From: Patescibacteria group bacterium | GTDB taxonomy: Bacteria > Patescibacteriota > Patescibacteriia > UBA11705 > DATKZF01 | Direction of reading: 5' to 3' | Assembly (NCBI GenBank): GCA_049319825.1 | Contig: JBMORT010000006.1 | Span: 166,340-230,339, forward strand | Length of the DNA: 64,000 nucleotides | Shown here: positions 13,000 to 35,655 of the stretch, piece by piece | How positions within the stretch are numbered: the first letter of the stretch is position 1 | How the letters are laid out: each line of letters begins with the position of its first letter | Translations under genes and position numbers: made by a program | The notes under the pieces: model-generated | The model's input: only the letters and a program-made list of their open reading frames with translations | Databases searched by the model: none | Told to the model about the DNA's origin: nothing

Positions 13000-13223
13000 A
13001 AATTTTGTATATATTAAATTTTAGCTGCTGTATACATTATATCAATTGGCAGGGAGGGAGACAATATCGTTTAAAATAAAAAAAGCCCAGAAGGCTTATT
13101 GGCTTGCCAGCCGTAGCTTCAGCGAAGGCTGGCTCGGGGGCAGGGATTTCCGCCTACGCCCTCGCTAGCTCGGGCTTCGGCGGACAGGCGAACCGGTTTA
13201 TCGTCGGGGTTCTCATCCCTGTA

Positions 13224-13277: not shown

Positions 13278-13351
13278 TGGCTCGGGGACAGGGATTCGAA
13301 CCCCGATAGCCAGGACCAAAACCTGGAGTCCTACCATTAGACGATCCCCGA
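13278..13351 (-). tRNA. tRNA-Gln (anticodon TTG), CCA encoded
   Basis: Hand-folded. Acceptor stem TCGGGGA/TCCCCGA, D-stem GTCT/GGAC, anticodon stem CCAGG/CCTGG, loop TTTTGGT, T-arm CGGGG-TTCGAAT-CCCTG, discriminator G and a 3' CCA. Length 74 nt. Confidence 0.85.
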
Positions 13352-13634
13352 ATGTAAGAAATTGGAAATTGGAAACTAGAAATTATAATTTTAAAAATTT
13401 CAAAAACTACAAATATTATACTGGATAAAGAAAGTTTTGTCAAACAATTTTAGCTTTACTTTTCCCTTCGTTTATAGTAAAATTAGACTTGATTATATTG
13501 TGATTTGGATTAAATTATTTAAATTTTCAATTGCGTGATGAGAAAAATTAATAAATAAAAATCTCATTGAAACGCTAACAAGAATAGCTAATGTTCTAAA
13601 TGTTGGCACTGATGATTTAATAAAATAAAAAAAC

Positions 13635-14387
13635 ATGGCAGAACTAACCACAATTGAAAAACAGATTCTTGAAAAGCTCTTTCAAATGGGCGGTGGTTAC
13701 GTTTTAAATTTTTCTGACAGAACAATGGGTGAATTTTTCAGAGACGATGTTGGACTAGATATTTACACTCAGAAATACAATTACGCAAGCGGCTCAAAAG
13801 CCAATCGTATGCGTGGTCTATGGTTAAAAGCAGACAATAAAACGGTAGGAAACTCTATATTAAAACTTATTGAATACATTGAAAGTCAAATTTTGATTGA
13901 TGAACTTTCCCGTGATGATTTTCCCGAAGATAGAATAAAGGCCGCCAAAGAGATAGTTGACAAATTGTTAGGGAAAAAGAGTAAGCCAAAAGATAGTAAA
14001 TCGAAAGCTACTTTTAAAAATGGCAATATTAACATTACTTTACAAAAAGATATTTTTGATCATGTCCAAAAATTATTGAATAGCGGGCATTATTTCAATG
14101 CAGTCGAAGAAGCATACAAAATTGTTAGAAAAAAACTAAAAGATATTACTGGAAAAGAAAAAGCGACGGACGCTTTTAACAGTTCAAATTATGAAAAAAT
14201 TTTTGGCCATCAGCCTGTAGAGCAAGCTGAGAAAGATTTTTTTGAGGGCGTAAAATTTTTACATATGTCTATTCAATTTTTACGAAATGAGAAAGCGCAT
14301 ACGCCAGCGCGTGATTTGGACAAAAATTTAGCAATTCATTATATATCGCTCGCCAGTTTAGCGTATGATTTAATCACTAGAAAGTGA
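13635..14387 (+). CDS. HEPN-domain protein, TIGR02391/Abi-like (putative abortive-infection RNase)
   Basis: The C-terminal domain carries the Rx4H HEPN motif (FLRNEKAHT) in a TIGR02391-like context (GHYFNAVEEAYKIVRKKL). It is the first gene of the AT-rich island. Confidence 0.6.
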   Translation: MAELTTIEKQILEKLFQMGGGYVLNFSDRTMGEFFRDDVGLDIYTQKYNYASGSKANRMRGLWLKADNKTVGNSILKLIEYIESQILIDELSRDDFPEDRIKAAKEIVDKLLGKKSKPKDSKSKATFKNGNINITLQKDIFDHVQKLLNSGHYFNAVEEAYKIVRKKLKDITGKEKATDAFNSSNYEKIFGHQPVEQAEKDFFEGVKFLHMSIQFLRNEKAHTPARDLDKNLAIHYISLASLAYDLITRK

Positions 14388-14393
14388 ATTATT

Positions 14394-15422
14394 ATGGCAC
14401 ATAAACACTTACACAAGGCAGGCCGTGCGAAGAATGATGAGTTTTATACCCAGCTCGTTGACATTGAAAAAGAGCTTAAATACTACAAAGAACAATTCCG
14501 TGGCAAGGTTGTGTACTGTAATTGCGATGATCCTTTTGAAAGTAATTTTTTCAAGTATTTCGCTGCCAATTTTAATGCATTAGGACTCAAGAAACTCATC
14601 ACAACGAGTTACAATAAATCACCGATTGCAGGTAGACAGTTGCCCTTGTTTGAAATGGAGGGGTTGAAATCTATAAAGCCTATAGACGCAGAGCCCTACA
14701 AAATTGAAATAAATGAAGTATCCGATATTAACAACGATGGCGCGATAAATCTCGAAGACGTTGAACAATTAATAAAGCATGAGAAAAACATCGCAACCCC
14801 CTTGCGTGGTAACGGTGATTTCCGCAGTGACGAGTGTATTGAGCTACTCAAGCAAGCCGATATAGTCGTGACTAACCCTCCATTTTCACTATTCCGTGAG
14901 TATGTCGCCCAGCTTGTGAAATATAAAAAAAAGTTTTTGATTATAGGTAATACAAATGCCCTAACTTATAAAGAGATTTTTAAATTAATTAAAGAGAATA
15001 AATTCCGCACTGGCTATACCAATTTTAATGTAGGTATGTTTTTTGTTGTACCAGACGATTGGGAACATTTTCACCATGTCGATAAAGATGGCAAAAAAAT
15101 TGCGCGAGTCTCAACATCATGCTGGTTTACAAATCTTGAAGTTGAAAAACACAAGGAAGATATCATTCTTTACAAAAAATATACACCCGAAGAGTATCCA
15201 AAATATGACAACTATAATGCAATCAATGTAAATAAATACACAGATATTCCCTATGATTACACTGGGTATATTGGCGTACCAATCACTTTTATCGATAAAT
15301 ATAATCCTGAACAGTTTGAAATAGTGAGATTTCGAAAAGGTAATGATGATAAAGACTTATCAATAAATGGAAAATATACCTATTTTAGAATTATTATAAA
15401 AAATAAGAAAGTTAAAAAATAA
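14394..15422 (+). CDS. DNA N6-adenine methyltransferase, EcoRI-methylase-like family
   Basis: N-terminal KNDEFYTQ...VVYCNCDDPFESNFFKYF and catalytic motif IV TNPPFS. The resemblance to M.EcoRI is recalled from memory, not searched. Confidence 0.7.
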   Translation: MAHKHLHKAGRAKNDEFYTQLVDIEKELKYYKEQFRGKVVYCNCDDPFESNFFKYFAANFNALGLKKLITTSYNKSPIAGRQLPLFEMEGLKSIKPIDAEPYKIEINEVSDINNDGAINLEDVEQLIKHEKNIATPLRGNGDFRSDECIELLKQADIVVTNPPFSLFREYVAQLVKYKKKFLIIGNTNALTYKEIFKLIKENKFRTGYTNFNVGMFFVVPDDWEHFHHVDKDGKKIARVSTSCWFTNLEVEKHKEDIILYKKYTPEEYPKYDNYNAINVNKYTDIPYDYTGYIGVPITFIDKYNPEQFEIVRFRKGNDDKDLSINGKYTYFRIIIKNKKVKK

Positions 15423-15423
15423 T

Positions 15424-16533
15424 ATGAAAATAGAGCTTCATCAAATTCCAATTGGCAAAGTCATCGCCGGTTACAAGGATAGCGCCGAAGAAGGTGTCGT
15501 GGCTTATGACGGTAAGCTTGATATTCGCCCAAAGTATCAGAGAGAATTTGTGTACAATGAAAAACAGCGCAATGCCGTGATTGAAACCGTTAAGCAAAAC
15601 TTCCCGCTCAACGTAATGTACTGGATGGTTCGCGAAGACGGTGGCTATGAAATGCTGGACGGTCAGCAACGTACCATCAGTATTGGGCAGTATGTGAATG
15701 GTGACTTCTCGCTCGAAAATCGTTTTTTCCATAATTTAACACCTGAAGAACAAGATCAGATTTTGGATTATGAATTAATGATTTACTTTTGTGAAGGTAC
15801 GGATAAGGAAAGATTAGATTGGTTTAAAACAATCAATATAGCCGGTGAAAAATTAACCGACCAAGAAATTCGTAATGCGGTTTACACAGGGCCGTGGCTT
15901 TCTGACGCTAAATTGAAGTTTAGCAAAACACAGTGTGCGGCATATCGTTTAGCGACCGACGGCGGAAAGTTAGTCAGCGGTTCTCCAATCCGTCAAGAAT
16001 ATTTAGAAGCCGCGCTTTCATGGATAAACAACGGCGAAGTTGCGGATTACATGGCGAAGCATCAGCACAACAAAAATGCTAATCAGTTGTGGGAATATTT
16101 CCAAGATGTCATTGCGTGGGTGCGTAAAACTTTTCCAAATTACCGAAAAGAAATGGCAAGCGTAAATTGGGGCGAATTATACAACAAATTCAAAAAAAAG
16201 AAGCTAAACGCCGAAAAACTAGAAGCCGAAATTGCCAAGTTAATGCAGGATGAGGATGTAACAAAAAAATCTGGCATATATCCTTATGTACTCACAGGAG
16301 AAGAAAAACACCTTTCTATTCGCGCGTTCACCGACAAAATGAAGCGGGAAGCATACGAGCGGCAAAAAGGTGTTTGCCCTTGGTGCAAAAAAGAGAAGAA
16401 AGAAAAACAAAAATGGGAAATTGAAGAAATGGAAGCCGACCATATTAAGCCTTGGCACGAGGGCGGAAAAACAACCGCAGAGAATTGCCAAATGTTATGC
16501 AAACAAGATAACCGAACTAAATCGGGGAAGTAA
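15424..16533 (+). CDS. DUF262 (ParB/GmrS-like, DGQQR motif) N-domain fused to a C-terminal HNH nuclease
   Basis: DGQQRT motif and a C-terminal CPWC...ADHIKPWHEGGKTTAENCQMLCKQDN HNH motif. The start is 2 nt after the methyltransferase stop. Confidence 0.8.
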   Translation: MKIELHQIPIGKVIAGYKDSAEEGVVAYDGKLDIRPKYQREFVYNEKQRNAVIETVKQNFPLNVMYWMVREDGGYEMLDGQQRTISIGQYVNGDFSLENRFFHNLTPEEQDQILDYELMIYFCEGTDKERLDWFKTINIAGEKLTDQEIRNAVYTGPWLSDAKLKFSKTQCAAYRLATDGGKLVSGSPIRQEYLEAALSWINNGEVADYMAKHQHNKNANQLWEYFQDVIAWVRKTFPNYRKEMASVNWGELYNKFKKKKLNAEKLEAEIAKLMQDEDVTKKSGIYPYVLTGEEKHLSIRAFTDKMKREAYERQKGVCPWCKKEKKEKQKWEIEEMEADHIKPWHEGGKTTAENCQMLCKQDNRTKSGK

Positions 16534-16640
16534 AAATTGGAATAGGGTGTGTATAATTTTCTTTACATGACTCTTGACAAAAAATTCTACATCGCTTACA
16601 ATGGAGGTGTAAGTATTATTAAATAATTTCCATTAACACT

Positions 16641-16853
16641 ATGGATAGAAAACGAAAAGCAGACCACGAAAAAATAAAGAAAATTTTAGAAAAACGTGGT
16701 TATAAAAACGGTGAACCACCACGTGGATATGAGGTGCACCACATCAAACCACTTGCAGAAGGCGGAAAGGATACACCTAAAAATATTCGGGTAATAAAAA
16801 TAATAAAACACAAACAAATACACGCTAATCGTAAAGAAAGAAGTAAAATTTAA
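16641..16853 (+). CDS. mini HNH endonuclease (70 aa)
   Basis: The motif EVHHIKPLAEGGKDTPKNIRV...H resembles the HNH core of the upstream gene (HIKP-EGGK-T--N). Confidence 0.6.
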   Translation: MDRKRKADHEKIKKILEKRGYKNGEPPRGYEVHHIKPLAEGGKDTPKNIRVIKIIKHKQIHANRKERSKI

Positions 16854-16855
16854 TT

Positions 16856-17623
16856 ATGTTTGGAAAATTTATCCAACATCAACGTACCAAGCGAAATATG
16901 ACACAGGAATATCTTGCGTCAGAGCTTGATATGTCTCGTCCCACTTATTTACAGATTGAACGCGGGGAGCGAGAGCTTACGATTTCCGAAGCAAAAAAGC
17001 TGGCGGCTCTTTTTGACATGCCGCTTGAAAATTTTCTTGCTGCCAGAGAACCAAAACGAAGTGTTGCCATTGAAAAAGAATCGGTAAAAAAAACTGAAGA
17101 CTTGCAGATTCGCGTTACAGAAAAAAACCTTGATAAATTCAAGCAGGTTTTGCTTTATGTTTTGAATAAGGTTGGTGGCAAGCCAAATGTTGGTGAAACA
17201 GTTTTGCATAAACTTCTTTATTTTATCGATTTTGACTACTACGAGAAGTTTGAAGAAAACTTAATGGGTGCAACTTATATCAAAAATCATCACGGTCCCA
17301 CTTCTATCGAGCTCGGCACAATTATAGAGGAAATGCAGACGCAGGGTGAGTTAGAAGCTGTAAAGAGTCAGTATTTTAAGTATTTACAAAAAAAGTATCT
17401 GCCGCGAAAACGTCCTAATCTCGATATTCTTTCCGCGCGAGAAATTGAGCACATTGATGATGTACTTGCTCGTCTTTCAGACAAAAATGCTGCGGAAATA
17501 GAAAATTATTCACACGAGGACATTCCTTGGAAATCTGCGCAGGACGGCAAGCCGCTTTCTTACGAGAGCGTTTTCTACCGCGACGAGCGATACTCCGTAA
17601 GAAACTATGACGATAAACTTTAA
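16856..17623 (+). CDS. HTH-XRE + Panacea/SocA (DUF4065) domain protein, PanA-type antitoxin candidate
   Basis: N-terminal XRE HTH (MTQEYLASELDMSRPTYLQIERGER). Panacea-like core VGGKPNVGETVLHKLLYFIDFDYYEKFEENLMGATYIKNHHGP. Starts 3 nt after the mini-HNH stop. Confidence 0.65.
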   Translation: MFGKFIQHQRTKRNMTQEYLASELDMSRPTYLQIERGERELTISEAKKLAALFDMPLENFLAAREPKRSVAIEKESVKKTEDLQIRVTEKNLDKFKQVLLYVLNKVGGKPNVGETVLHKLLYFIDFDYYEKFEENLMGATYIKNHHGPTSIELGTIIEEMQTQGELEAVKSQYFKYLQKKYLPRKRPNLDILSAREIEHIDDVLARLSDKNAAEIENYSHEDIPWKSAQDGKPLSYESVFYRDERYSVRNYDDKL

Positions 17624-17951
17624 TGAGCTTCCCGAATTTCAAAAAGAATTCAAGCGGCTTGGCAAAAAATATAAATCTCTCCCCGATGACTTGCAAGAAT
17701 TCTGCAATGTGGTTTCTGTTGTTCCGCTTGGCAATAGTAAACATTTTAACATCATTACCCAAACTAAACTTTTTTGCATTATAAAAGCTCGCTTGTTCTG
17801 TAGATATTTGAAAGGAACCTCGCTCCGCATTATTTATTCTTATTTTGAGCAGAAACAATGTATTGAATTTATTGAATTATATTTTAAAGGTGATAAAGAA
17901 ACCGAAGATCGTGATAGAATAAAAGAATATTTGAAAAATAATCAGAACTAA
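17607..17951 (+). CDS. RelE/ParE-superfamily toxin-like protein
   Basis: 114 aa with a ...KARLFCRYLKGTSLRIIYSYFEQKQCIEFIELYFKGDK pattern. It overlaps the Panacea gene by 17 nt. Confidence 0.45.
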   Translation: MTINFNELPEFQKEFKRLGKKYKSLPDDLQEFCNVVSVVPLGNSKHFNIITQTKLFCIIKARLFCRYLKGTSLRIIYSYFEQKQCIEFIELYFKGDKETEDRDRIKEYLKNNQN

Positions 17952-18113
17952 CCCCACCCACCACCCTATAATTTTGTAGCCCCGCAAAAAAATCAGATCG
18001 CTCCCCTGCAGTCTTTTTTCATTTGTAAAAGTAAATCAACAGAAACTTATCTCGGCTTGTCTCGCTTGTTCAGTATGCTATAATCAAATAGCCTAATCAT
18101 TAACAAAAAATTT

Positions 18114-18512
18114 ATGAAAGGATTCTTCGCAAACATTGAGCGGGACACGATGGAAAATGAAAATTTCCGCAAAGTATTATACACCTCAAAGCACAGCCAG
18201 CTGGTTTTGATGGCTTTGCAGCCAAATGAAGAAATCGGCATGGAAGTGCATCCGGACAATGACCAGTTTTTCCGGTTTGAAAAGGGAACTGGCAAAGTCA
18301 TTATTGACGGCAATGAATATGAAGTCACTGACGGCTCAGCCATCGTGGTGCCGTCCGGCGCTCAGCATAATGTCATAAACACATCAAATGCTGAGCCTCT
18401 TAAGCTGTACACCATATATTCACCGGCGCATCATAAGGACCAAATCGTGCGCGCGACCAAAGAAGAAGCCATGGCGCAGGAAGCGGAATTTGACGGGATG
18501 ACCACTGAATAA
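18114..18512 (+). CDS. cupin-domain protein
   Basis: Cupin motifs GMEVHPDNDQFFRFEKGTGKVIIDG and VVPSGAQHNVINT. The true start may be the internal Met at about 18150. A TGCTATAAT extended -10 lies upstream. Confidence 0.75.
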   Translation: MKGFFANIERDTMENENFRKVLYTSKHSQLVLMALQPNEEIGMEVHPDNDQFFRFEKGTGKVIIDGNEYEVTDGSAIVVPSGAQHNVINTSNAEPLKLYTIYSPAHHKDQIVRATKEEAMAQEAEFDGMTTE

Positions 18513-23333: not shown

Positions 23334-24371
23334 TTATTTTTGCCGATTGACCACGAATTCGATCGCTTGCTCTATCAGCCGTTTAGCGGATTGATCCGGC
23401 AGATTTTTTGAGTATCCGCTGAATAAATCCGATGCCTGTTTGGCATATTGCCGCGCCAGATTTTTCGCGTAATCCATGCTTCCATATTTATGCATTAGCT
23501 CAAGCACTTTTTTGATTTCGTCTTCGGTTTTTGATTCTCGGTTTTTTACGAATATTTCAGTGATCGTTTGTTTCTCTTTGGCGTCGGCGCTTCGGAGCAG
23601 GTGGCCGAGTATCAGCGTGCGCTTGCCTTCCCAGATGTCGCCGGCGAATTCTTTGCCTTGGTTTTGCGATGTTTCGGTGACATTCATGACGTCATCGAAT
23701 ATTTGAAAGGCCAGTCCGAACGGCAATGTCCATTCTTCGATTTTGTTCATTGTTGAAATTGATCCGTAACCGGCGATGATGGCGGCCAGCTGCGTCGGCG
23801 CGGTGGTGGTGTAGGCCGCTGTTTTTTTCGATACCATGTTCAGGTATTCAACTTCGGAGACTTCAACGATTTTATTTTTTATCCAATTAAGCTCCATGAA
23901 CTGCCCTTCGGTGGTGGTCATCAGCGTTTCATTGAATTTGTCAAAAATTTCAAACCCGGTATCGCCGCGGTGATTTCTTGCAATATCGCCGATCATTTTC
24001 CACATTATCAAATGCAGCGCGTCACCGGCGTTAATGGCCGCTTCTTCGCCGTACATCAAATTCAGTGATAGCCGGTGCCGACGTTCCAGCGAGTGGTCTT
24101 CCACGTCGTCGTGAATCAGCAGCCAGTCTTCGGAAATCTGCAGCGCCGCCGCAATCGGCAGGGCGTCCTGCTCGCGGCCGCCGTGGAGTCTGGCCGAGAG
24201 CATCAGCAGCGCCGGTCGAAAATATTTGCCTTGCCGATGGGGATATTCATTGATCATCCGGTGATACGGATAGTTCGATTCCGCCGGCAAATATTTTTTT
24301 ACCTGATTCCACACCGCCTTTTTGTTTTCATCCAAAAAATTCAATAATTCATTTTCAGTTGTAGTTTCCAT
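23334..24371 (-). CDS. trans-polyprenyl diphosphate synthase (GGPP/FPP synthase family)
   Basis: FARM LLIHDDVEDHSLERR and SARM FQIFDDVMNV motifs. 345 aa. Confidence 0.9.
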   Translation of the reverse strand: METTTENELLNFLDENKKAVWNQVKKYLPAESNYPYHRMINEYPHRQGKYFRPALLMLSARLHGGREQDALPIAAALQISEDWLLIHDDVEDHSLERRHRLSLNLMYGEEAAINAGDALHLIMWKMIGDIARNHRGDTGFEIFDKFNETLMTTTEGQFMELNWIKNKIVEVSEVEYLNMVSKKTAAYTTTAPTQLAAIIAGYGSISTMNKIEEWTLPFGLAFQIFDDVMNVTETSQNQGKEFAGDIWEGKRTLILGHLLRSADAKEKQTITEIFVKNRESKTEDEIKKVLELMHKYGSMDYAKNLARQYAKQASDLFSGYSKNLPDQSAKRLIEQAIEFVVNRQK

Positions 24372-30192: not shown

Positions 30193-33100
30193 ATGAGAAG
30201 ATTGGTCGCCGGCACAGTGATCCTGCTTTTCATTATTTTGAAGAGTTCCCAGAGTTTGGCCGGTTATGATTTTATCGTTGTTGAACCAGCCGCAGCGGAA
30301 TATTCTCCCGGAGAAGAAATTACTTTCCATTTCGCATTTTACTTTATCCAAATGGGCATCACTTGCGCCACCATCAGCGGCAGTGTCTATAATGAAAGCG
30401 GCGGTCTGATCGACGCGGCCACGCAGGGGATCGCCAGCGATGGCTCGTATCATCTTTACGCGTACGCGAACGCTCCCAGTGGTTACGGAGTGCACATTTT
30501 TGAAATGATGTTTCATGTTCAGCTTTGTCCGGGATGGCAATTTTCAGACGGTAGCACCAGTATTTCTTACTCCGAGGACATTTTGATTGAGATCGCTGGT
30601 TCAGCAACCAATTCGGACGTCGAGAGCGATATTGATTTGTATGATGAAGATATTTGGGAAGAAATCGGTGACGGAGACGATGTCTTTGAGGTCGGAGAAA
30701 GAATTTGTTTTGAAATCGAGCTGGAAAACGACAGCAGTTCCGATTCGTATGACATCGATGCGGTTTACACCTACAGCAGCGGAGCTGACGTGGATTGGAA
30801 TGATGATGACTGCGGCGTTGATTTCACGTTATCGGAATTGGATGAAGATTGGGTCGATGATGATTTTTGTTTCACTGCCCGGGAGTTGGGCAGAGTCAAG
30901 GTGGAGATTTATGTGAAATTGGAAGGTGCCGCCACTTTGTATAACGTTGATTCTTTTCATATTGATATCGTCTGTCAGCCATCCTGGAGCTGCACGAACT
31001 GGTCAAGCTGCGCCAATTGCTTTCAGACGCGCGTTTGCACCGATTCGCATAATTGCGGCACGACCAGCGGTAAGCCGGCCGAATCCCAGTCTTGCGGTAT
31101 TTTTCCCAATCAGTGTGATCCGTTCGGCAGTCTCTGCGACGGCAACGTGGCCTACGACTGCTTGTACGACAGCTACAATTGCTACTATTACAAATCCAAT
31201 CAGCAGACCTGTCTTTACGGCTGCAGCTTCGGTGAATGCGCGTCCGCGACCGAATGCGCATACACAGATTGTTACTTGGATGATTTGTGGTGCCATAACA
31301 GCGCCGGCATTCGAACGTATATCGGGCAGGACTGCGGAGCACTGCAAGAAGTTGAATATGAATTCATCTGCGATGGAATCGAGCGTTGGGCAATCGCGCA
31401 TGAAACCAACAGAGGTTGTCAATCTGGTCAATGCTATGTCAGTTTGCATGACAGTTCGTATTACTTGGAAACATGTTCCCAGCAATGCGCGAATGGTCAA
31501 TGCGTAAATCCCGATTGTTTGTACACCGCTTGCCTGAATAATGATTTATGGTGCTACAATTCTGCCAATCAGCCGCAGTATCTGGCTGAAGATTGCGGCA
31601 ATGCCAGCGGCACGTCCACGATCAGCGCCGTGTACTGCTCGGAGACCGGAGATTTGGTGAAGCTGAAGAGTTACTCCACCCGCTGTTGCGCCAATGGCGC
31701 TTGCGGCTGGTGCTTTCAATATAATTACGAGCAGGTGCAGGTGGAATGCCCAGCCGGTTGCGATCCGGACACTGATCAATGTTTGGCCTGCGTGCCGGCA
31801 TTCGATTGCTATCAGGCGCAGGTTTGTTTGTCGGATGATACTCAGGAGTACCAGTGCGACGACTTGCTTTGCGGCCAGCCGTCTTACACGGAAATCAGGC
31901 CATGCCAGTATTGCGATGAAAAGTGCGCGCTGGGAGAAAGCTACTGCGCCGGAAATACGGCGTTCACTTGCGTGTCGGTCGGCGGCTGTGATACTGATTG
32001 GCAGTCCGCCTTCTGCGGTTACAGCGAAGAAATTGAGGGAGAGCCGTATTGCAGCGGAAACAATGTAATGAAAGACACTACTGCTACCGATCGCTGGTGC
32101 GCTGACGGAGCGTGCCAACAAGAAATTTCGATCAACGCTGAGGCAATCGCTGATTGCGGTGTTGATACCTCTTTTTCAACCATGCCGTATTGCTTGAACG
32201 ATGACGTTGTATTTGATGACGTCGAAATTTTCAGAGGTTGCTCGAGCGGATCATGCTATGAAGATGAAACCAGCGAATCGCAGATTTTAATGGCATGTGG
32301 CGAGGATACGACAATCAGCGGTGTTAAGTCATGCAACAGCGATGGGAACGCAACTTTTGGCGATATTCACATTGTCAGGGGTTGTGAAAACGCTCAATGC
32401 CACGAGTACCCGATTCAGGATTATTTTGCGGAATTTGTTTGCCCCTGTGGCTGTGATGACGGCGATTGTCTGCCGTGCGACGGCTGCGACTATTTAGACT
32501 GCGGAACCAGCGAGTTCCACTCAACTCTTCCTTACTGCCATCAAGGCAAGGTTGTGTTTGATAATATCAATATCGAGCGCGGCTGCGCTGATTCAGCATG
32601 TTTCGCTGTTGACAACAGCCAGTATTATCAATTGCTCGATGATTGCGGCACCGATGAAATCAATACCAATGTCGCTTTTTGCCGCGATGGTAATATCGCG
32701 GTGGGAAATTCCGGCTATATTCGAGGCTGCAGCGATGCCCAGTGCTATGAAGAATCGATTGACTATGTGGCTTTTATTATCTTGTGCGAATGCGGATGTT
32801 CCGAAGCAGCTTGCCTGCCGTGTTATGAAGCATGCGTCAGTTTGCGTTGCAATCCGGAAGACGGCAATGTCTGGTGCTATGACAGCTGGGGACAGGCGAC
32901 ATCTCTGGAAACAGATTGCGCTCAGAATGAGGTTTGCCTTGGCGGAATTGAATACGATGCCGAGTGCGTTGAACTAATTGCCCCGGTTTGTGATCAGTTT
33001 GGCGTTGGTATTGATCAAACAATCTATCGAGCAGCAGACCGTTTTCCTCTGACTCGAACATTAACCTTGGAGCTTAAGGGATTTTTTGTATATGATGTAG

Positions 33101-35655
33101 ATCATTTTGAATGGTTTATTGATGGAGGCTTAATTCCTGACATTACCTTTGTGCCAGATTACGAGTTTACTTTTAATGACTACGGACAATACGTGTATTT
33201 TGTGCGCATTGTCCATAAAGAAAATAGTTGCATAACCGAGGGCTTCATCAATATTAATGTTGTTAAGCCTTATGAGTTGTTTGACATTTTTGATCTGGAT
33301 GTTATTTTTGAAAATCAAGAGCAAGGCAAGCATATTATTTCACTTGAGCTTCCTTCCCATGATTTCGTGGTATTTAAGGTTAACGGCGGGGCAGGACCGT
33401 TTACTTTGAGCTGTTTTTACGACATGGGCAATCCTGACCCAATCGAAATTTATGCAGCGAAAGATCTAGGAAATGTCTATTATTTATTCAATCAGGGCAC
33501 GCACATCCCTTGTTATTCTGGAAACACATTGTATTTAGATGAGGGCATTTGGCATGTCCGGATTGAAACTGGGGAAGTGATAAATAATATCATCACTTTG
33601 GAATCAAGCTTTCATCTTGACCATGAGCGTTATGCAACACAAAAATACCGAAAAGGACGGTTTTATTGGGGAGCGCTTTCTGGTGTGTGTGAGAATGATT
33701 CCGATGTCTTTTGCACCACTGGAGATATTTTAAATTTGCCAGCGGGTTTTATTCCTGTAGTAGGCGATTCAATTGATGTTTTTCAGGCAATTATAAATAT
33801 GGGCATTTACGCCCAAAAGGAGCTGGATTTAAATATTATTCGGTTGAATTCTGATTCAGAAAAGCAAGAATTTTTGCAGGCCGGAGCGTTTGCCTCAATT
33901 GCCGCGCTGACTCCGTTTATCACTAACAAAATGGTCAGGTTTGTGGCTGATGGCAATTTGTTAAATCTGGTAAAAAATGAAAAAGGTACCAGAGGAGCAA
34001 TTGACTATATCAGCTATCAGCAAGTGGCTGCCAGAGGAAGCTTGAGAATTGACAATAATGAGTTTCATCAGGATATTTTATCAAGCGAATACAATTCGTT
34101 CTCCCTGAAATTAAAAACATTTTCTGACGGAGTTGATCCGCTGTTCAAATTTGATGAAAGCTTAAAAGAAATTATGGATGAAATTGATGAGGCTGTTATT
34201 GATGTAAAACAACAAATTAAAAACAGCAATGACTTGCCAAGGATCCAGGAACACATTTTGCAGGAGTTTGGTGAAGAAGTGGACATTGATCATGTTCCAG
34301 CCACTGATTTAATCAGATATTATGATACAGATCCTGAACTAACACTTTCAGGAACTTTAAGCGAAGATGTTGCATATATCAGAGAAGGCATTGCCTCGCT
34401 TTTTGCCAGGGCAACTGCTAATCAAGCTGACATGATATTAAAGCCAGCTGGAGCTTTTGAGCGGATTGACAATGTTTATGTGCTTTTTCCCTCTAAATCA
34501 AATCTTAATCAGGTATTTCCATTGCAGGTAGGCATTAAAACGCCTTATGACCCGGTAATCGTAAGAAAAGAACATGCCGGCAGATACATTGATCTTGAAA
34601 CAGGATTTGTATATGTGGAAGGCATTAATACCTTTATTACAAAAGAGATTGATTTTGTTGCAGAGATTGAAGGCACGAATGAAATAATTGCTTTTGAATT
34701 CAAATGGGGGCGTTCAGATGATAAACAGGCAGCAAGAACTTTTGCGACTTTAAAGAAGTTATTCCCTGATAAAAAGATAAATGTAATAAACAATGCTAAT
34801 TTAAGAGATCCCACATTAACTGGAAACAGATTATGGGCAGAATCAAATATTGATTCTGATTATGTGATATATACAAATGATCCGAGTTCAATCACTCCCA
34901 CCGCAGACTTTCAAATAAATACGCCCTTTGAAATTTTCTGCGAGAATGGGCAAAATCTTGTGCCGATTCGGATTACAGCCACCAAACTGATCGACAGCTT
35001 GTGGTGCGTTAATCAGGAGAGTCAACAGCGGTACGATCAGTTTTACGAAAAAGAAGGGGAATATGTGTTGGCGGTCGCGCCAGCCGATCCGTACGGGATG
35101 GTCGCGTACAGCTGCCAAGCCACCAGCGCCGACGGCGATCAAGCGTCGGACGTGGTCACATTAATCGGATCGAAAATTCATATTCCTGAAGATGAAGACG
35201 CCAATCACAGGTTTGTCATGGCGATCGCCCCGCGATTTCCGTTAGCCGGGGAAAAAATCGAGATTGAGATTTACTCGCTCGATAAAAGCTGTTTAACCGA
35301 TGTCGATTGTCAGATTAGCGGCGCCGCTATCAGCGATAAAAGAATGAAAGTCAGACTTAAAGTGGATGATATCGAATTTCAGCATGATGGCCAGGTCACT
35401 TATGACTTCTTGGATTGCCGCGAGTATGATTTCATGTTCAATATGATCAAATCCGGACCGAATATTGTTTCCTGCACCGGCCGGTTCCTGGACGGATATT
35501 CGTTGACGCTGGAAGAAGAGGTGAATGTTCCTGTCGATCAAATCCAGCGTGTTCATAAAAGTTCTTGCCAAGTCGGGCAAGGCGTTGGCCAGCCGCTCTG
35601 GCTGACCTTGCTGGCGCTGTGGCTTTTGCCCCGGCGCCGAAAGTCCAAAATCTAA
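30193..35655 (+). CDS. giant (1820 aa) secreted Cys-rich repeat protein with C-terminal sorting-signal-like tail
   Basis: Signal peptide MRRLVAGTVILLFIILKSSQSLAG. There is an acidic region, about 700 aa of tandem Cys-rich modules (recurring ...CG.D....C......RGC..AQC...), a Cys-poor aromatic-rich region and a C-terminal tail ...CQVGQGVGQPLWLTLLALWLLPRRRKSKI. A strong RBS GGAGAGGAG precedes it and terminator 35664-35691 follows it. Confidence 0.85.
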   Translation: MRRLVAGTVILLFIILKSSQSLAGYDFIVVEPAAAEYSPGEEITFHFAFYFIQMGITCATISGSVYNESGGLIDAATQGIASDGSYHLYAYANAPSGYGVHIFEMMFHVQLCPGWQFSDGSTSISYSEDILIEIAGSATNSDVESDIDLYDEDIWEEIGDGDDVFEVGERICFEIELENDSSSDSYDIDAVYTYSSGADVDWNDDDCGVDFTLSELDEDWVDDDFCFTARELGRVKVEIYVKLEGAATLYNVDSFHIDIVCQPSWSCTNWSSCANCFQTRVCTDSHNCGTTSGKPAESQSCGIFPNQCDPFGSLCDGNVAYDCLYDSYNCYYYKSNQQTCLYGCSFGECASATECAYTDCYLDDLWCHNSAGIRTYIGQDCGALQEVEYEFICDGIERWAIAHETNRGCQSGQCYVSLHDSSYYLETCSQQCANGQCVNPDCLYTACLNNDLWCYNSANQPQYLAEDCGNASGTSTISAVYCSETGDLVKLKSYSTRCCANGACGWCFQYNYEQVQVECPAGCDPDTDQCLACVPAFDCYQAQVCLSDDTQEYQCDDLLCGQPSYTEIRPCQYCDEKCALGESYCAGNTAFTCVSVGGCDTDWQSAFCGYSEEIEGEPYCSGNNVMKDTTATDRWCADGACQQEISINAEAIADCGVDTSFSTMPYCLNDDVVFDDVEIFRGCSSGSCYEDETSESQILMACGEDTTISGVKSCNSDGNATFGDIHIVRGCENAQCHEYPIQDYFAEFVCPCGCDDGDCLPCDGCDYLDCGTSEFHSTLPYCHQGKVVFDNINIERGCADSACFAVDNSQYYQLLDDCGTDEINTNVAFCRDGNIAVGNSGYIRGCSDAQCYEESIDYVAFIILCECGCSEAACLPCYEACVSLRCNPEDGNVWCYDSWGQATSLETDCAQNEVCLGGIEYDAECVELIAPVCDQFGVGIDQTIYRAADRFPLTRTLTLELKGFFVYDVDHFEWFIDGGLIPDITFVPDYEFTFNDYGQYVYFVRIVHKENSCITEGFININVVKPYELFDIFDLDVIFENQEQGKHIISLELPSHDFVVFKVNGGAGPFTLSCFYDMGNPDPIEIYAAKDLGNVYYLFNQGTHIPCYSGNTLYLDEGIWHVRIETGEVINNIITLESSFHLDHERYATQKYRKGRFYWGALSGVCENDSDVFCTTGDILNLPAGFIPVVGDSIDVFQAIINMGIYAQKELDLNIIRLNSDSEKQEFLQAGAFASIAALTPFITNKMVRFVADGNLLNLVKNEKGTRGAIDYISYQQVAARGSLRIDNNEFHQDILSSEYNSFSLKLKTFSDGVDPLFKFDESLKEIMDEIDEAVIDVKQQIKNSNDLPRIQEHILQEFGEEVDIDHVPATDLIRYYDTDPELTLSGTLSEDVAYIREGIASLFARATANQADMILKPAGAFERIDNVYVLFPSKSNLNQVFPLQVGIKTPYDPVIVRKEHAGRYIDLETGFVYVEGINTFITKEIDFVAEIEGTNEIIAFEFKWGRSDDKQAARTFATLKKLFPDKKINVINNANLRDPTLTGNRLWAESNIDSDYVIYTNDPSSITPTADFQINTPFEIFCENGQNLVPIRITATKLIDSLWCVNQESQQRYDQFYEKEGEYVLAVAPADPYGMVAYSCQATSADGDQASDVVTLIGSKIHIPEDEDANHRFVMAIAPRFPLAGEKIEIEIYSLDKSCLTDVDCQISGAAISDKRMKVRLKVDDIEFQHDGQVTYDFLDCREYDFMFNMIKSGPNIVSCTGRFLDGYSLTLEEEVNVPVDQIQRVHKSSCQVGQGVGQPLWLTLLALWLLPRRRKSKI

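Follow-up and report, generated by a model that had tools for sequence, protein, structure and literature searches.

Gene content and borders of the island

The subject of this study is a cluster of genes beside a tRNA-Gln gene in a 64,000-nt stretch of contig JBMORT010000006.1, from a Patescibacteria group bacterium whose genome was assembled from a metagenome. The whole 64,000-nt stretch is called the window here, the block beside tRNA-Gln is called the island, and labels of the type L001 denote loci fetched for comparison. Six open reading frames (ORFs), g1 to g6, lie on the + strand between tRNA-Gln and a Cupin_2 gene; a sequence-only reading of the window had described six co-directional, tightly packed genes at this place, and all six were recovered at the same coordinates. 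The intergenic gaps from g1 to g5 are, in order, 6, 1, 107 and 2 nt, and g5 and g6 overlap by 17 nt. The features are, from left to right:

13278–13351, − strand: tRNA-Gln (anticodon TTG), found with ARAGORN and matching the Rfam tRNA model at 57.9 bits; left landmark, with its 5' end toward the island
13415–13443, − strand: putative sigma-70-like promoter, TTGACA-17-TATAAT, 12/12 in a consensus scan, aimed at tRNA-Gln
13531–13628, + strand: decayed XRE-HTH gene, the seventh gene of the block, 5' of g1
13635–14387, + strand: g1, 250 aa, Ymh/TIGR02391 HEPN protein with a helical N-terminal domain
14394–15422, + strand: g2, 342 aa, EcoRI-family N6-adenine DNA methyltransferase
15424–16533, + strand: g3, 369 aa, DUF262/GmrSD_N with a C-terminal HNH domain
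16574–16602, + strand: putative sigma-70-like promoter, TTGACA-17-TACAAT, 11/12 in a consensus scan, in the g3–g4 spacer
16641–16853, + strand: g4, 70 aa, standalone HNH protein
16856–17623, + strand: g5, 255 aa, HTH(XRE)-Panacea protein
17607–17951, + strand: g6, 114 aa, candidate toxin with a RelE/ParE fold
17952–17993, + strand: C-rich tail, conserved in part, at the 3' end of the PanAT (g5–g6) cassette; right border of the foreign block
18114–18512: Cupin_2 gene, right landmark

The island has a GC content of 36.0%, against 44.8% in the remaining sequence. No 4.5-kb interval of the window is lower in GC (mean 44.0%, standard deviation 2.5%) or more deviant in its tetranucleotide usage. Among ORFs of 200 aa or longer, the four in the island have GC contents at third codon positions (GC3) of 0.279, 0.341, 0.427 and 0.375. 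The 33 native ones have a mean of 0.515 (standard deviation 0.049) and a minimum of 0.431, and all four island values are lower than this minimum. The AT-richness noticed in the earlier reading, which had called for a comparison of GC and codon usage, is thus confirmed as real and beyond chance fluctuation. Other low-GC patches of 1–2 kb were considered as extra islands and rejected, as they are located within large native genes. One of these genes, a 1820-aa ORF (30193–35655, + strand), holds the second-lowest GC stretch of the window (33–35 kb, 37–39% GC).

The foreign block spans from about 13444, just past the promoter-like site of the tRNA gene, to about 17993, where DNA homology to other loci ends. 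The segment 13352–13550 has zero DNA homology to any of the fetched cassette loci, and the promoter-like site at 13415–13443 belongs to the native side of this left junction. On the right, homology of the tail (17952–17993) with about 18–85 other loci stops at its end and is zero past 18000, column identity falling from 0.4–0.56 to 0.05–0.2 after position 17992. A search of the PanAT cassette ends for terminal repeats or an attC-like structure found only this partly conserved, C-rich 40-nt tail, and Rfam models gave only sub-threshold snoRNA noise in the junction region.

The block could also be seen as native or housekeeping DNA with an incidental AT-richness, and it has no integrase, transposase or flanking repeats and no empty site that could be found. 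However, its GC3 lies under that of every native gene, all its families are of defence or toxin-antitoxin (TA) types, and near-identical cassettes occur in unrelated phyla, on plasmids and on phages. Composition and phylogenetic distribution refute a native origin, the probability of which is negligible.

Mobility and the tRNA junction

Neither the island nor the 10 kb on either side of it has a called integrase or transposase, in agreement with the sequence-only reading. The island adjoins the 5' side of tRNA-Gln, beyond the promoter-like site of the tRNA gene. The 3' end of the tRNA gene (13278–13296) is repeated directly, with 18 of 19 matching positions, at 13130–13148, 148 nt 3' of the tRNA; a terminator-like hairpin comes after each copy. 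The repeat at 13130–13148 looks like the att-type scar of a former element at the tRNA 3' end. It was rejected as an att site of the island itself, being on the opposite (3') side of the tRNA and not bracketing the island. The island does not have the features of a tRNA-targeting integrative island, and its place beside the tRNA differs from that of classical integrated elements. The exact proteins of g1, g4 and g6 were found in only one public contig (Logan SRR32167788_19300).

The predicted g2–g3 restriction-modification pair

Profile searches with Pfam, NCBIfam and PADLOC models upheld the family calls that had been made for all six genes from the sequence, that of g6 at the level of fold only; all the families are of defence or TA types rather than housekeeping ones, as had been proposed. 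g2 matches PF13651 (EcoRI_methylase; E = 3.1e-136, 2–335 of 345) and the PADLOC MTase_II model PDLC03297 (E = 4.5e-123), and its translation contains TNPPF, with the NPPF catalytic motif. g3 has a PF03235 domain (GmrSD_N/DUF262, ParB/Srx-like; E = 8.9e-16), in which MLDGQQRT includes the DGQQR motif, and a C-terminal PF01844 HNH domain (E = 4.2e-11), with no DUF1524 match. It also matches the PADLOC REase_II model PDLC03418 (E = 2.4e-131, 1–369 of 372). Searches of g2 and g3 against PDB sequences with phmmer gave zero matches, and no characterised, named member of the family that pairs a DUF262-HNH nuclease with an EcoRI-like methylase was found in the searchable literature.

More than 539 relatives of g3 were found in reference genomes. 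The best 80 of these, at 77–88% identity, come from many lineages of the candidate phyla radiation (CPR), Omnitrophota, Gammaproteobacteria, Bdellovibrionales, Bacteroidota, Anaerolineae, Atribacterota and an archaeal metagenome-assembled genome. The methylase gene (M) adjoins the restriction gene (R) in 76 of these 80 genome loci, where it lies directly 5' at a spacing of 1–4 nt. The two genes are likewise neighbours on plasmids and in all but one of 25 viral loci. In plasmids of cultured bacteria, the pair is found at 52–60% identity, annotated as a DUF262 domain-containing protein and an adenine-specific methyltransferase of the EcoRI family, and it is also present on 25 IMG/VR contigs and in a few phages. 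Plasmids and phages are plausible carriers of the restriction-modification (R-M) pair, the GC content of which stays at about 38% across hosts of 28–58% GC. Given their family membership and the conserved, tight M–R pairing, g2 and g3 are predicted to be one standard Type II R-M pair.

g3 might instead be a Type IV-like, modification-dependent nuclease, such as GmrSD, BrxU and SspE, of which g2 is not the protective partner. Its DUF262 domain with DGQQR, its His-Me nuclease and its weak matches to the PADLOC models mREase_IV, NsnA and PD-T4-2_A are in keeping with this, but it matches the PADLOC Type II nuclease model over its full length, M is directly 5' in 76 of the 80 loci, the C-terminus is a PF01844 HNH rather than DUF1524, and a nuclease that depends on m6A (N6-methyladenine) would attack its own host's DNA if it shared an operon with an m6A methylase. 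A Type IV-like role is therefore improbable, and the assignment to a Type II pair, in which modification would be expected to block rather than trigger cleavage (unlike in GmrSD, BrxU and SspE), is implied by the pairing of g3 with a methylase.

R is more conserved than M in every set (L008–L087, L177–L202), loci that were not chosen on R included: 81% against 56% identity in L177, 83% against 60% in L115, 80% against 52% in L068 and 50–76% against 41–64% in the viral set. The usual trend in Type II systems is the reverse, with the methylase more conserved than the nuclease. The last 30 or so codons of M (15322–15390) are a hotspot of recombination or divergence in the DNA homology map.

The g1 HEPN gene and its decayed XRE neighbour

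g1 scores 97.9 bits against TIGR02391 (cut-off 39.45) and 57 bits against PF09509 (cut-off 25). It has two domains, a helical one (residues 1–112) and a C-terminal Ymh/TIGR02391 HEPN domain, which has the helical HEPN fold and an Rx4-6H motif in the form of an invariant Rx4H (R217...H222). The N-terminal domain matched no Pfam model, which leaves no ground to equate it with AbiJ-NTD1, AbiTii or paraMORC. From the Rx4H motif and its family, g1 is predicted to be an RNase (PMC3710099). The Ymh family has been described as having Rx4-6H, extra N-terminal domains and a location 'in operon with R-M' (Anantharaman et al., 2013; PMC3710099), with which the position of g1 beside an R-M pair agrees.

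All the independent contexts of g1 that were found adjoin an R-M system, with varying R-M types and gene orders. The order is XRE, g1, Type I-like R (HSDR_N_2/ResIII), a 276-aa protein and N6_Mtase/Methylase_S in L174–L176, and XRE, g1, M, R in L041, where the XRE gene is intact. In L177 (1740–5753) it is Fic, EcoRI-like M, DUF262-HNH R and g1, the HEPN gene lying 3' of the R-M pair. These comparisons support a link of g1 with R-M systems in general.

The XRE remnant in the window is frameshifted and has lost helices 2–3. Its readable C-terminal 20 aa (IETLTRIANVLNVGTDDLIK, then the stop) are 50% identical to, and have the same end point as, a 65-aa HTH_3 protein encoded 5' of g1 homologues (L174; Pfam HTH_3, E = 6.8e-16), and an N-terminal piece, QLRDEKN, is in a different reading frame. 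Relatives (L174, L041) have an intact XRE gene of 65–70 aa at the same position, its stop being 2–7 nt 5' of g1, and the ancestral operon was, therefore, XRE-g1-M-R. The XRE product may have been an R-M controller (C protein) or a HEPN antitoxin. A few hundred bases 5' of XRE-g1-R-M, GIY-YIG ORFs of 86–122 aa are present in L174 (3225–3593), L175 (3333–3593) and L176 (4490–4759). Together with the 70-aa HNH, they suggest that miniature nucleases are common in such CPR defence islands.

The predicted g5–g6 toxin-antitoxin pair and the g4 mini-HNH

g5 matches PF13274 (SocA_Panacea) over its full length (E = 1.8e-16, 61.5 bits, cut-off 25.7; 1–113 of 113) and PF01381 (HTH_3; E = 3.9e-13). It has at least 450 relatives in metagenomes, the best 80 of which are 73–95% identical, and g6 is directly 3' of g5 in all 72 loci with room for it, usually with an overlap of 11–17 nt. 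None of the Pfam, NCBIfam, PADLOC or PHROG models matched g6, the family of which comprises over 1,200 clusters and has no model of its own. g6 has the RelE/ParE fold, with a helical N-terminal hairpin on an antiparallel sheet, and falls outside the sequence profiles of that superfamily. The conserved residues K45/H46, K60, R62, R74, Y92, R104 and Y108 would be compatible with an RNase active site, without amounting to proof of one. g5 is the probable antitoxin and autorepressor. Kurata et al. (2022; PMC8832971) described PanAT loci with an HTH-bearing PanA and with partner toxins such as ParE, MqsR-like proteins and numerous domain-less families; some of the genomes add an accessory third gene, which can encode a nuclease. 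No PanA (g5) relatives were found in IMG/VR, and phage carriage of PanAT, considered as a route of spread, has no support there.

g4 matches PF01844 partially (15–35 of 47; E = 6.1e-5) and by a slim margin (23.5 bits, cut-off 21.4), and its translation has the motif YEVHHIKP...GG...N...H. Its homologues form 166 clusters of 68–70 aa, at 70–86% identity. Of 70 PanAT loci, 10 have g4 directly 5' of g5 and 60 lack it; g4 is also 5' of g5 in L088 (Moranbacteria) and in ten Sungbacteria-type contexts (L203–L212). The g4–g5 spacing of 2–3 nt is kept in at least three lineages (the window, L088, L093–L098 and L203–L212). g4 is solitary among housekeeping genes in L091 and L092, and several PanAT loci have only a 48-aa match, which is possibly a truncated copy. 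By these comparisons, g4 is a third gene that only some members of this PanAT subfamily carry.

An extra ORF of 100 aa lies between the cassette promoter and the mini-HNH gene in L088 (5675–5977) and L093 (2961–3263), the two copies being 83% identical. It belongs to no family, with a sub-threshold GIY-YIG hint, and is precisely missing from the window, where 30 nt (16608–16638) take the place of about 324 nt. L205 (188–3553) has two mini-HNH/PanA/toxin trios, head to head, on one contig of 3.7 kb, which is either a true inverted duplication or an assembly artefact. Just 5' of PanAT, C-terminal fragments of HsdS (Methylase_S, 100–123 aa) occur in L203–L212 and in L004 (6422–6769, Jacksonbacteria), and in 5 of the 10 Sungbacteria-type loci a divergent IS200-like Y1 transposase is found beside the HsdS fragments and the trio.

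One system or separate cassettes

Co-occurrence was counted around the best 80 of the more than 539 g3 relatives in reference genomes and the best 80 of the at least 450 g5 relatives in metagenomes. Around g3, g2 is present in 76 loci, g1 in two (L041 and L062, in the same order), a pair resembling g5–g6 in one (L068, about 56% identity) and g4 in none of the 80. Around g5, an R-M pair resembling g2–g3 is nearby in two loci (L093, L115). No second locus with all six genes was found among about 200 examined. The window was also compared at the DNA level with all fetched loci, giving the following homology map:

13610–14390: g1, DNA homology in 2 loci
14398–16535: g2–g3, DNA homology in about 50–81 loci
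16542–16853: promoter segment and g4, DNA homology in about 10–21 loci
16841–17993: g5–g6 and the 40-nt tail, DNA homology in about 85 loci
past 18000: native DNA, 0 loci

The depth of homology steps sharply at 14398, 16535/16542, 16841 and 17993, which are the module borders. The segment 16542–16608 is homologous to sequence 5' of the g4–g5–g6 trio in L088, L093 and L098, indicating that the promoter-like site was inherited with the trio. A census of the neighbours of the PanAT cassette (150 ORFs at 48 non-redundant loci) gave 163 Pfam families, none in more than three ORFs. Only a minority of the neighbours are R-M or defence genes, and many are housekeeping genes. Each cassette has hundreds to thousands of relatives at 73–92% amino-acid identity in unrelated phyla. 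The comparisons show a pattern of independent inheritance for the cassettes (g1; g2–g3; promoter and g4; g5–g6). On the strength of the co-occurrence counts, the homology map and the neighbour census, the six-gene block is best seen as a mosaic and not as a conserved unit.

The sequence-only reading had favoured a composite, possibly cooperative, locus of unusual gene combination. The counts and the map point instead to independently inherited cassettes, and HEPN-Ymh genes near R-M systems (PMC3710099) and HTH-PanA with diverse toxins and accessories (PMC8832971) had already been published. A single cooperative phage-defence system with interdependent parts would fit the tight, co-directional packing, the repetition of most of the order in L093, and the position of PanAT pairs 0.4–1.6 kb 3' of the same R-M family in L115 and L068. 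It is at odds with the lack of another six-gene locus, with the rarity of the combinations (g1 in 2/80, g4 in 0/80, R-M with g5 in 2/80), with the separate homology borders of each cassette and the internal promoter-like site, and with the presence of the PanAT pair amid housekeeping genes in many genomes. The co-occurrence counts largely refute such a system, which appears very improbable.

A less demanding proposal is that there are two true multi-gene systems, with g1 as a PrrC/RloC-like anticodon-nuclease backup of R-M, triggered by blocked restriction, and g4–g5–g6 as a tripartite TA system where PanA controls the mini-HNH, which serves as an additional effector or as a regulator. g1 always adjoins some R-M system, in agreement with the literature, the g4–g5 spacing of 2–3 nt is kept across at least three lineages, and third genes of PanAT loci have been described (PMC8832971). 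However, g1 is missing from 78 of the 80 loci of this R-M family and may be 5' or 3' of the pair, and g4 is missing from 60 of 70 PanAT loci, stands alone in L091 and L092, and is matched over 48 aa only in several others. Their frequent absence and variable position suggest that g1 and g4 are dispensable accessories, and two true multi-gene systems are possible, but not the account that we favour. Only two of the links between genes have support from the comparisons: that of g1 with R-M in general and that of g4 with this PanAT subfamily.

A probable mosaic island of two operons

The best explanation, to which we give a probability of about 80%, is a horizontally acquired defence/addiction island of about 4.5 kb, in which separately mobile cassettes lie side by side in two operons. 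Its foreign origin is indicated by the GC and GC3 outliers, the relatives across unrelated phyla and the GC content of about 38% that the R-M cassette keeps in hosts of 28–58% GC. Two operons are proposed because a promoter-like site, inherited with the trio, is present in the 107-nt gap between g3 and g4.

Operon 1 would consist of the decayed XRE gene, g1, g2 and g3. As suggested by the gene families and the M–R pairing, the m6A methylase g2 would mark the DNA of the host, and g3, with its DUF262 NTPase-like domain and HNH domain, would cut unmarked incoming DNA. By analogy with published associations of HEPN proteins and R-M systems, g1 may ride with the R-M pair as a second-line RNase effector of the abortive-infection type. 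Operon 2 would have its own promoter, followed by g4, g5 and g6, and would encode a PanAT type II TA system. The toxin g6 most likely cleaves mRNA, as an endonuclease of RelE/HigB type. According to the PanAT literature, the Panacea domain of g5 would bind g6 directly and neutralise it, and the N-terminal HTH of g5 would repress operon 2, of which g4 would be an accessory gene. Placed together, the modules probably add layers of protection and make the island more stable. The comparisons show that they do not form a single obligate six-gene machine.

Several observations weigh against this interpretation. In L093, the order M-R-(100 aa)-HNH-PanA-toxin is repeated, with a very divergent R (36% identity), and PanAT cassettes repeatedly follow the 3' end of an R-M operon or of an HsdS fragment (the window, L093, L088, L004, L204). 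This recurrence could reflect defence-island clustering or an insertion preference, and some functional or insertional coupling of PanAT with R-M is conceivable. As for the toxin, a search of the g6 family profile against PDB sequences found nothing relevant, and Foldseek gave only a weak match (E about 0.2). The DUF262 nucleases characterised in the literature searched are all modification-dependent, so that the case for a g3 blocked by methylation draws on its gene pairing and on the PADLOC model label. The target of the R-M pair could not be deduced from palindrome avoidance: TGCA has the lowest score in the window (z = -3.3), but its ratio is 0.87 around the R-M pairs of 80 genomes (736 kb) and 0.90 in 411 kb of control loci, and, since the general depletion of 4-mer palindromes is equal in the R-M flanks and the controls, there is no R-M-specific signal. 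Finally, exact look-ups of g3, g6 and the cupin gene returned only the source contig, with no empty site or strain variant.

In a bolder reading, the very widespread EcoRI-family M/DUF262-HNH pair would be a biochemically undescribed kind of R-M system, and the trio would be a true tripartite TA system with a preference for docking at the 3' ends of R-M operons. g3 would then be a GmrSD-like, possibly NTP-dependent nuclease blocked, and not triggered, by methylation, the reverse of the characterised DUF262 nucleases, and the mini-HNH/HTH-PanA/RelE-fold trio would have docked in the window, in L088 and L093 and at the HsdS fragments of L004 and L204. The two proposals together are unlikely to be correct; if they were, the docked trio would be an addiction or abortive layer for R-M operons.

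Significance and flanking genes

The mosaic island is a worked example of how defence islands of ultra-small CPR genomes may be built, without a resident integrase, by the shuffling of conserved cassettes that move between phyla. The kit of cassettes comprises Ymh-HEPN with or without XRE, EcoRI-like M with DUF262-HNH R, Type I-like R-M, mini-HNH and PanAT. The analysis also draws attention to three abundant, unstudied families: the PanT toxin of RelE/ParE fold, with over 1,200 clusters and no family model, the 70-aa HNH protein and the DUF262-HNH restriction enzyme, the logic of which appears to invert that of the characterised Type IV enzymes related to it.

To the right of the island, the segment 19722–24371 encodes a 646-aa protein without a family match, a histidine kinase and a polyprenyl synthetase (23334–24371), and a Caroten_synth (PF04240) gene is present from about 27744 onward. 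The right flank may thus be an isoprenoid/carotenoid cluster, which would be unexpected for a reduced CPR genome.

Relation to known systems

Among Type II R-M systems with a PF13651 methylase, the g2–g3 pair is a close fit: g2 matches the family along its full length and has NPPF, M and R form a tight operon, and PADLOC types both proteins as Type II. It differs from EcoRI-type R-M in its nuclease, EcoRI being a PD-(D/E)XK enzyme and g3 a DUF262-HNH protein. With GmrSD, BrxU and SspE (Type IV or phosphorothioate-sensing), g3 shares an N-terminal DUF262 domain with DGQQR and a C-terminal beta-beta-alpha-metal nuclease; unlike GmrSD-type enzymes, which have DUF1524 and are encoded by a solitary gene, it has a classical HNH (PF01844) at the C-terminus and is paired with a methylase gene. 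g1 resembles the Ymh (PF09509/TIGR02391) HEPN proteins of R-M operons in its Rx4H HEPN domain, its extra N-terminal domain and its R-M neighbourhood. Its relatives are mostly preceded by a small XRE gene, whereas that gene is decayed in the window. PrrC and RloC are functional analogues of Ymh HEPN proteins, g1 differing in having no ATPase partner. The RelE, HigB and ParE toxins have no detectable sequence similarity to g6, the partner of which is PanA and not RelB, HigA or ParD; ribosome-bound mRNA and gyrase are the candidate targets of g6. With PanAT and SocAB, the g5–g6 pair shares an HTH-Panacea (DUF4065) antitoxin, a small overlapping toxin gene, strict pairing and a third gene in a subset of loci; it differs from the PanAT pairs described to date in that its toxin is not covered by a sequence model and its accessory gene encodes a 70-aa HNH protein. 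The island is, thus, not a new type of system, and its parts belong to known kinds.

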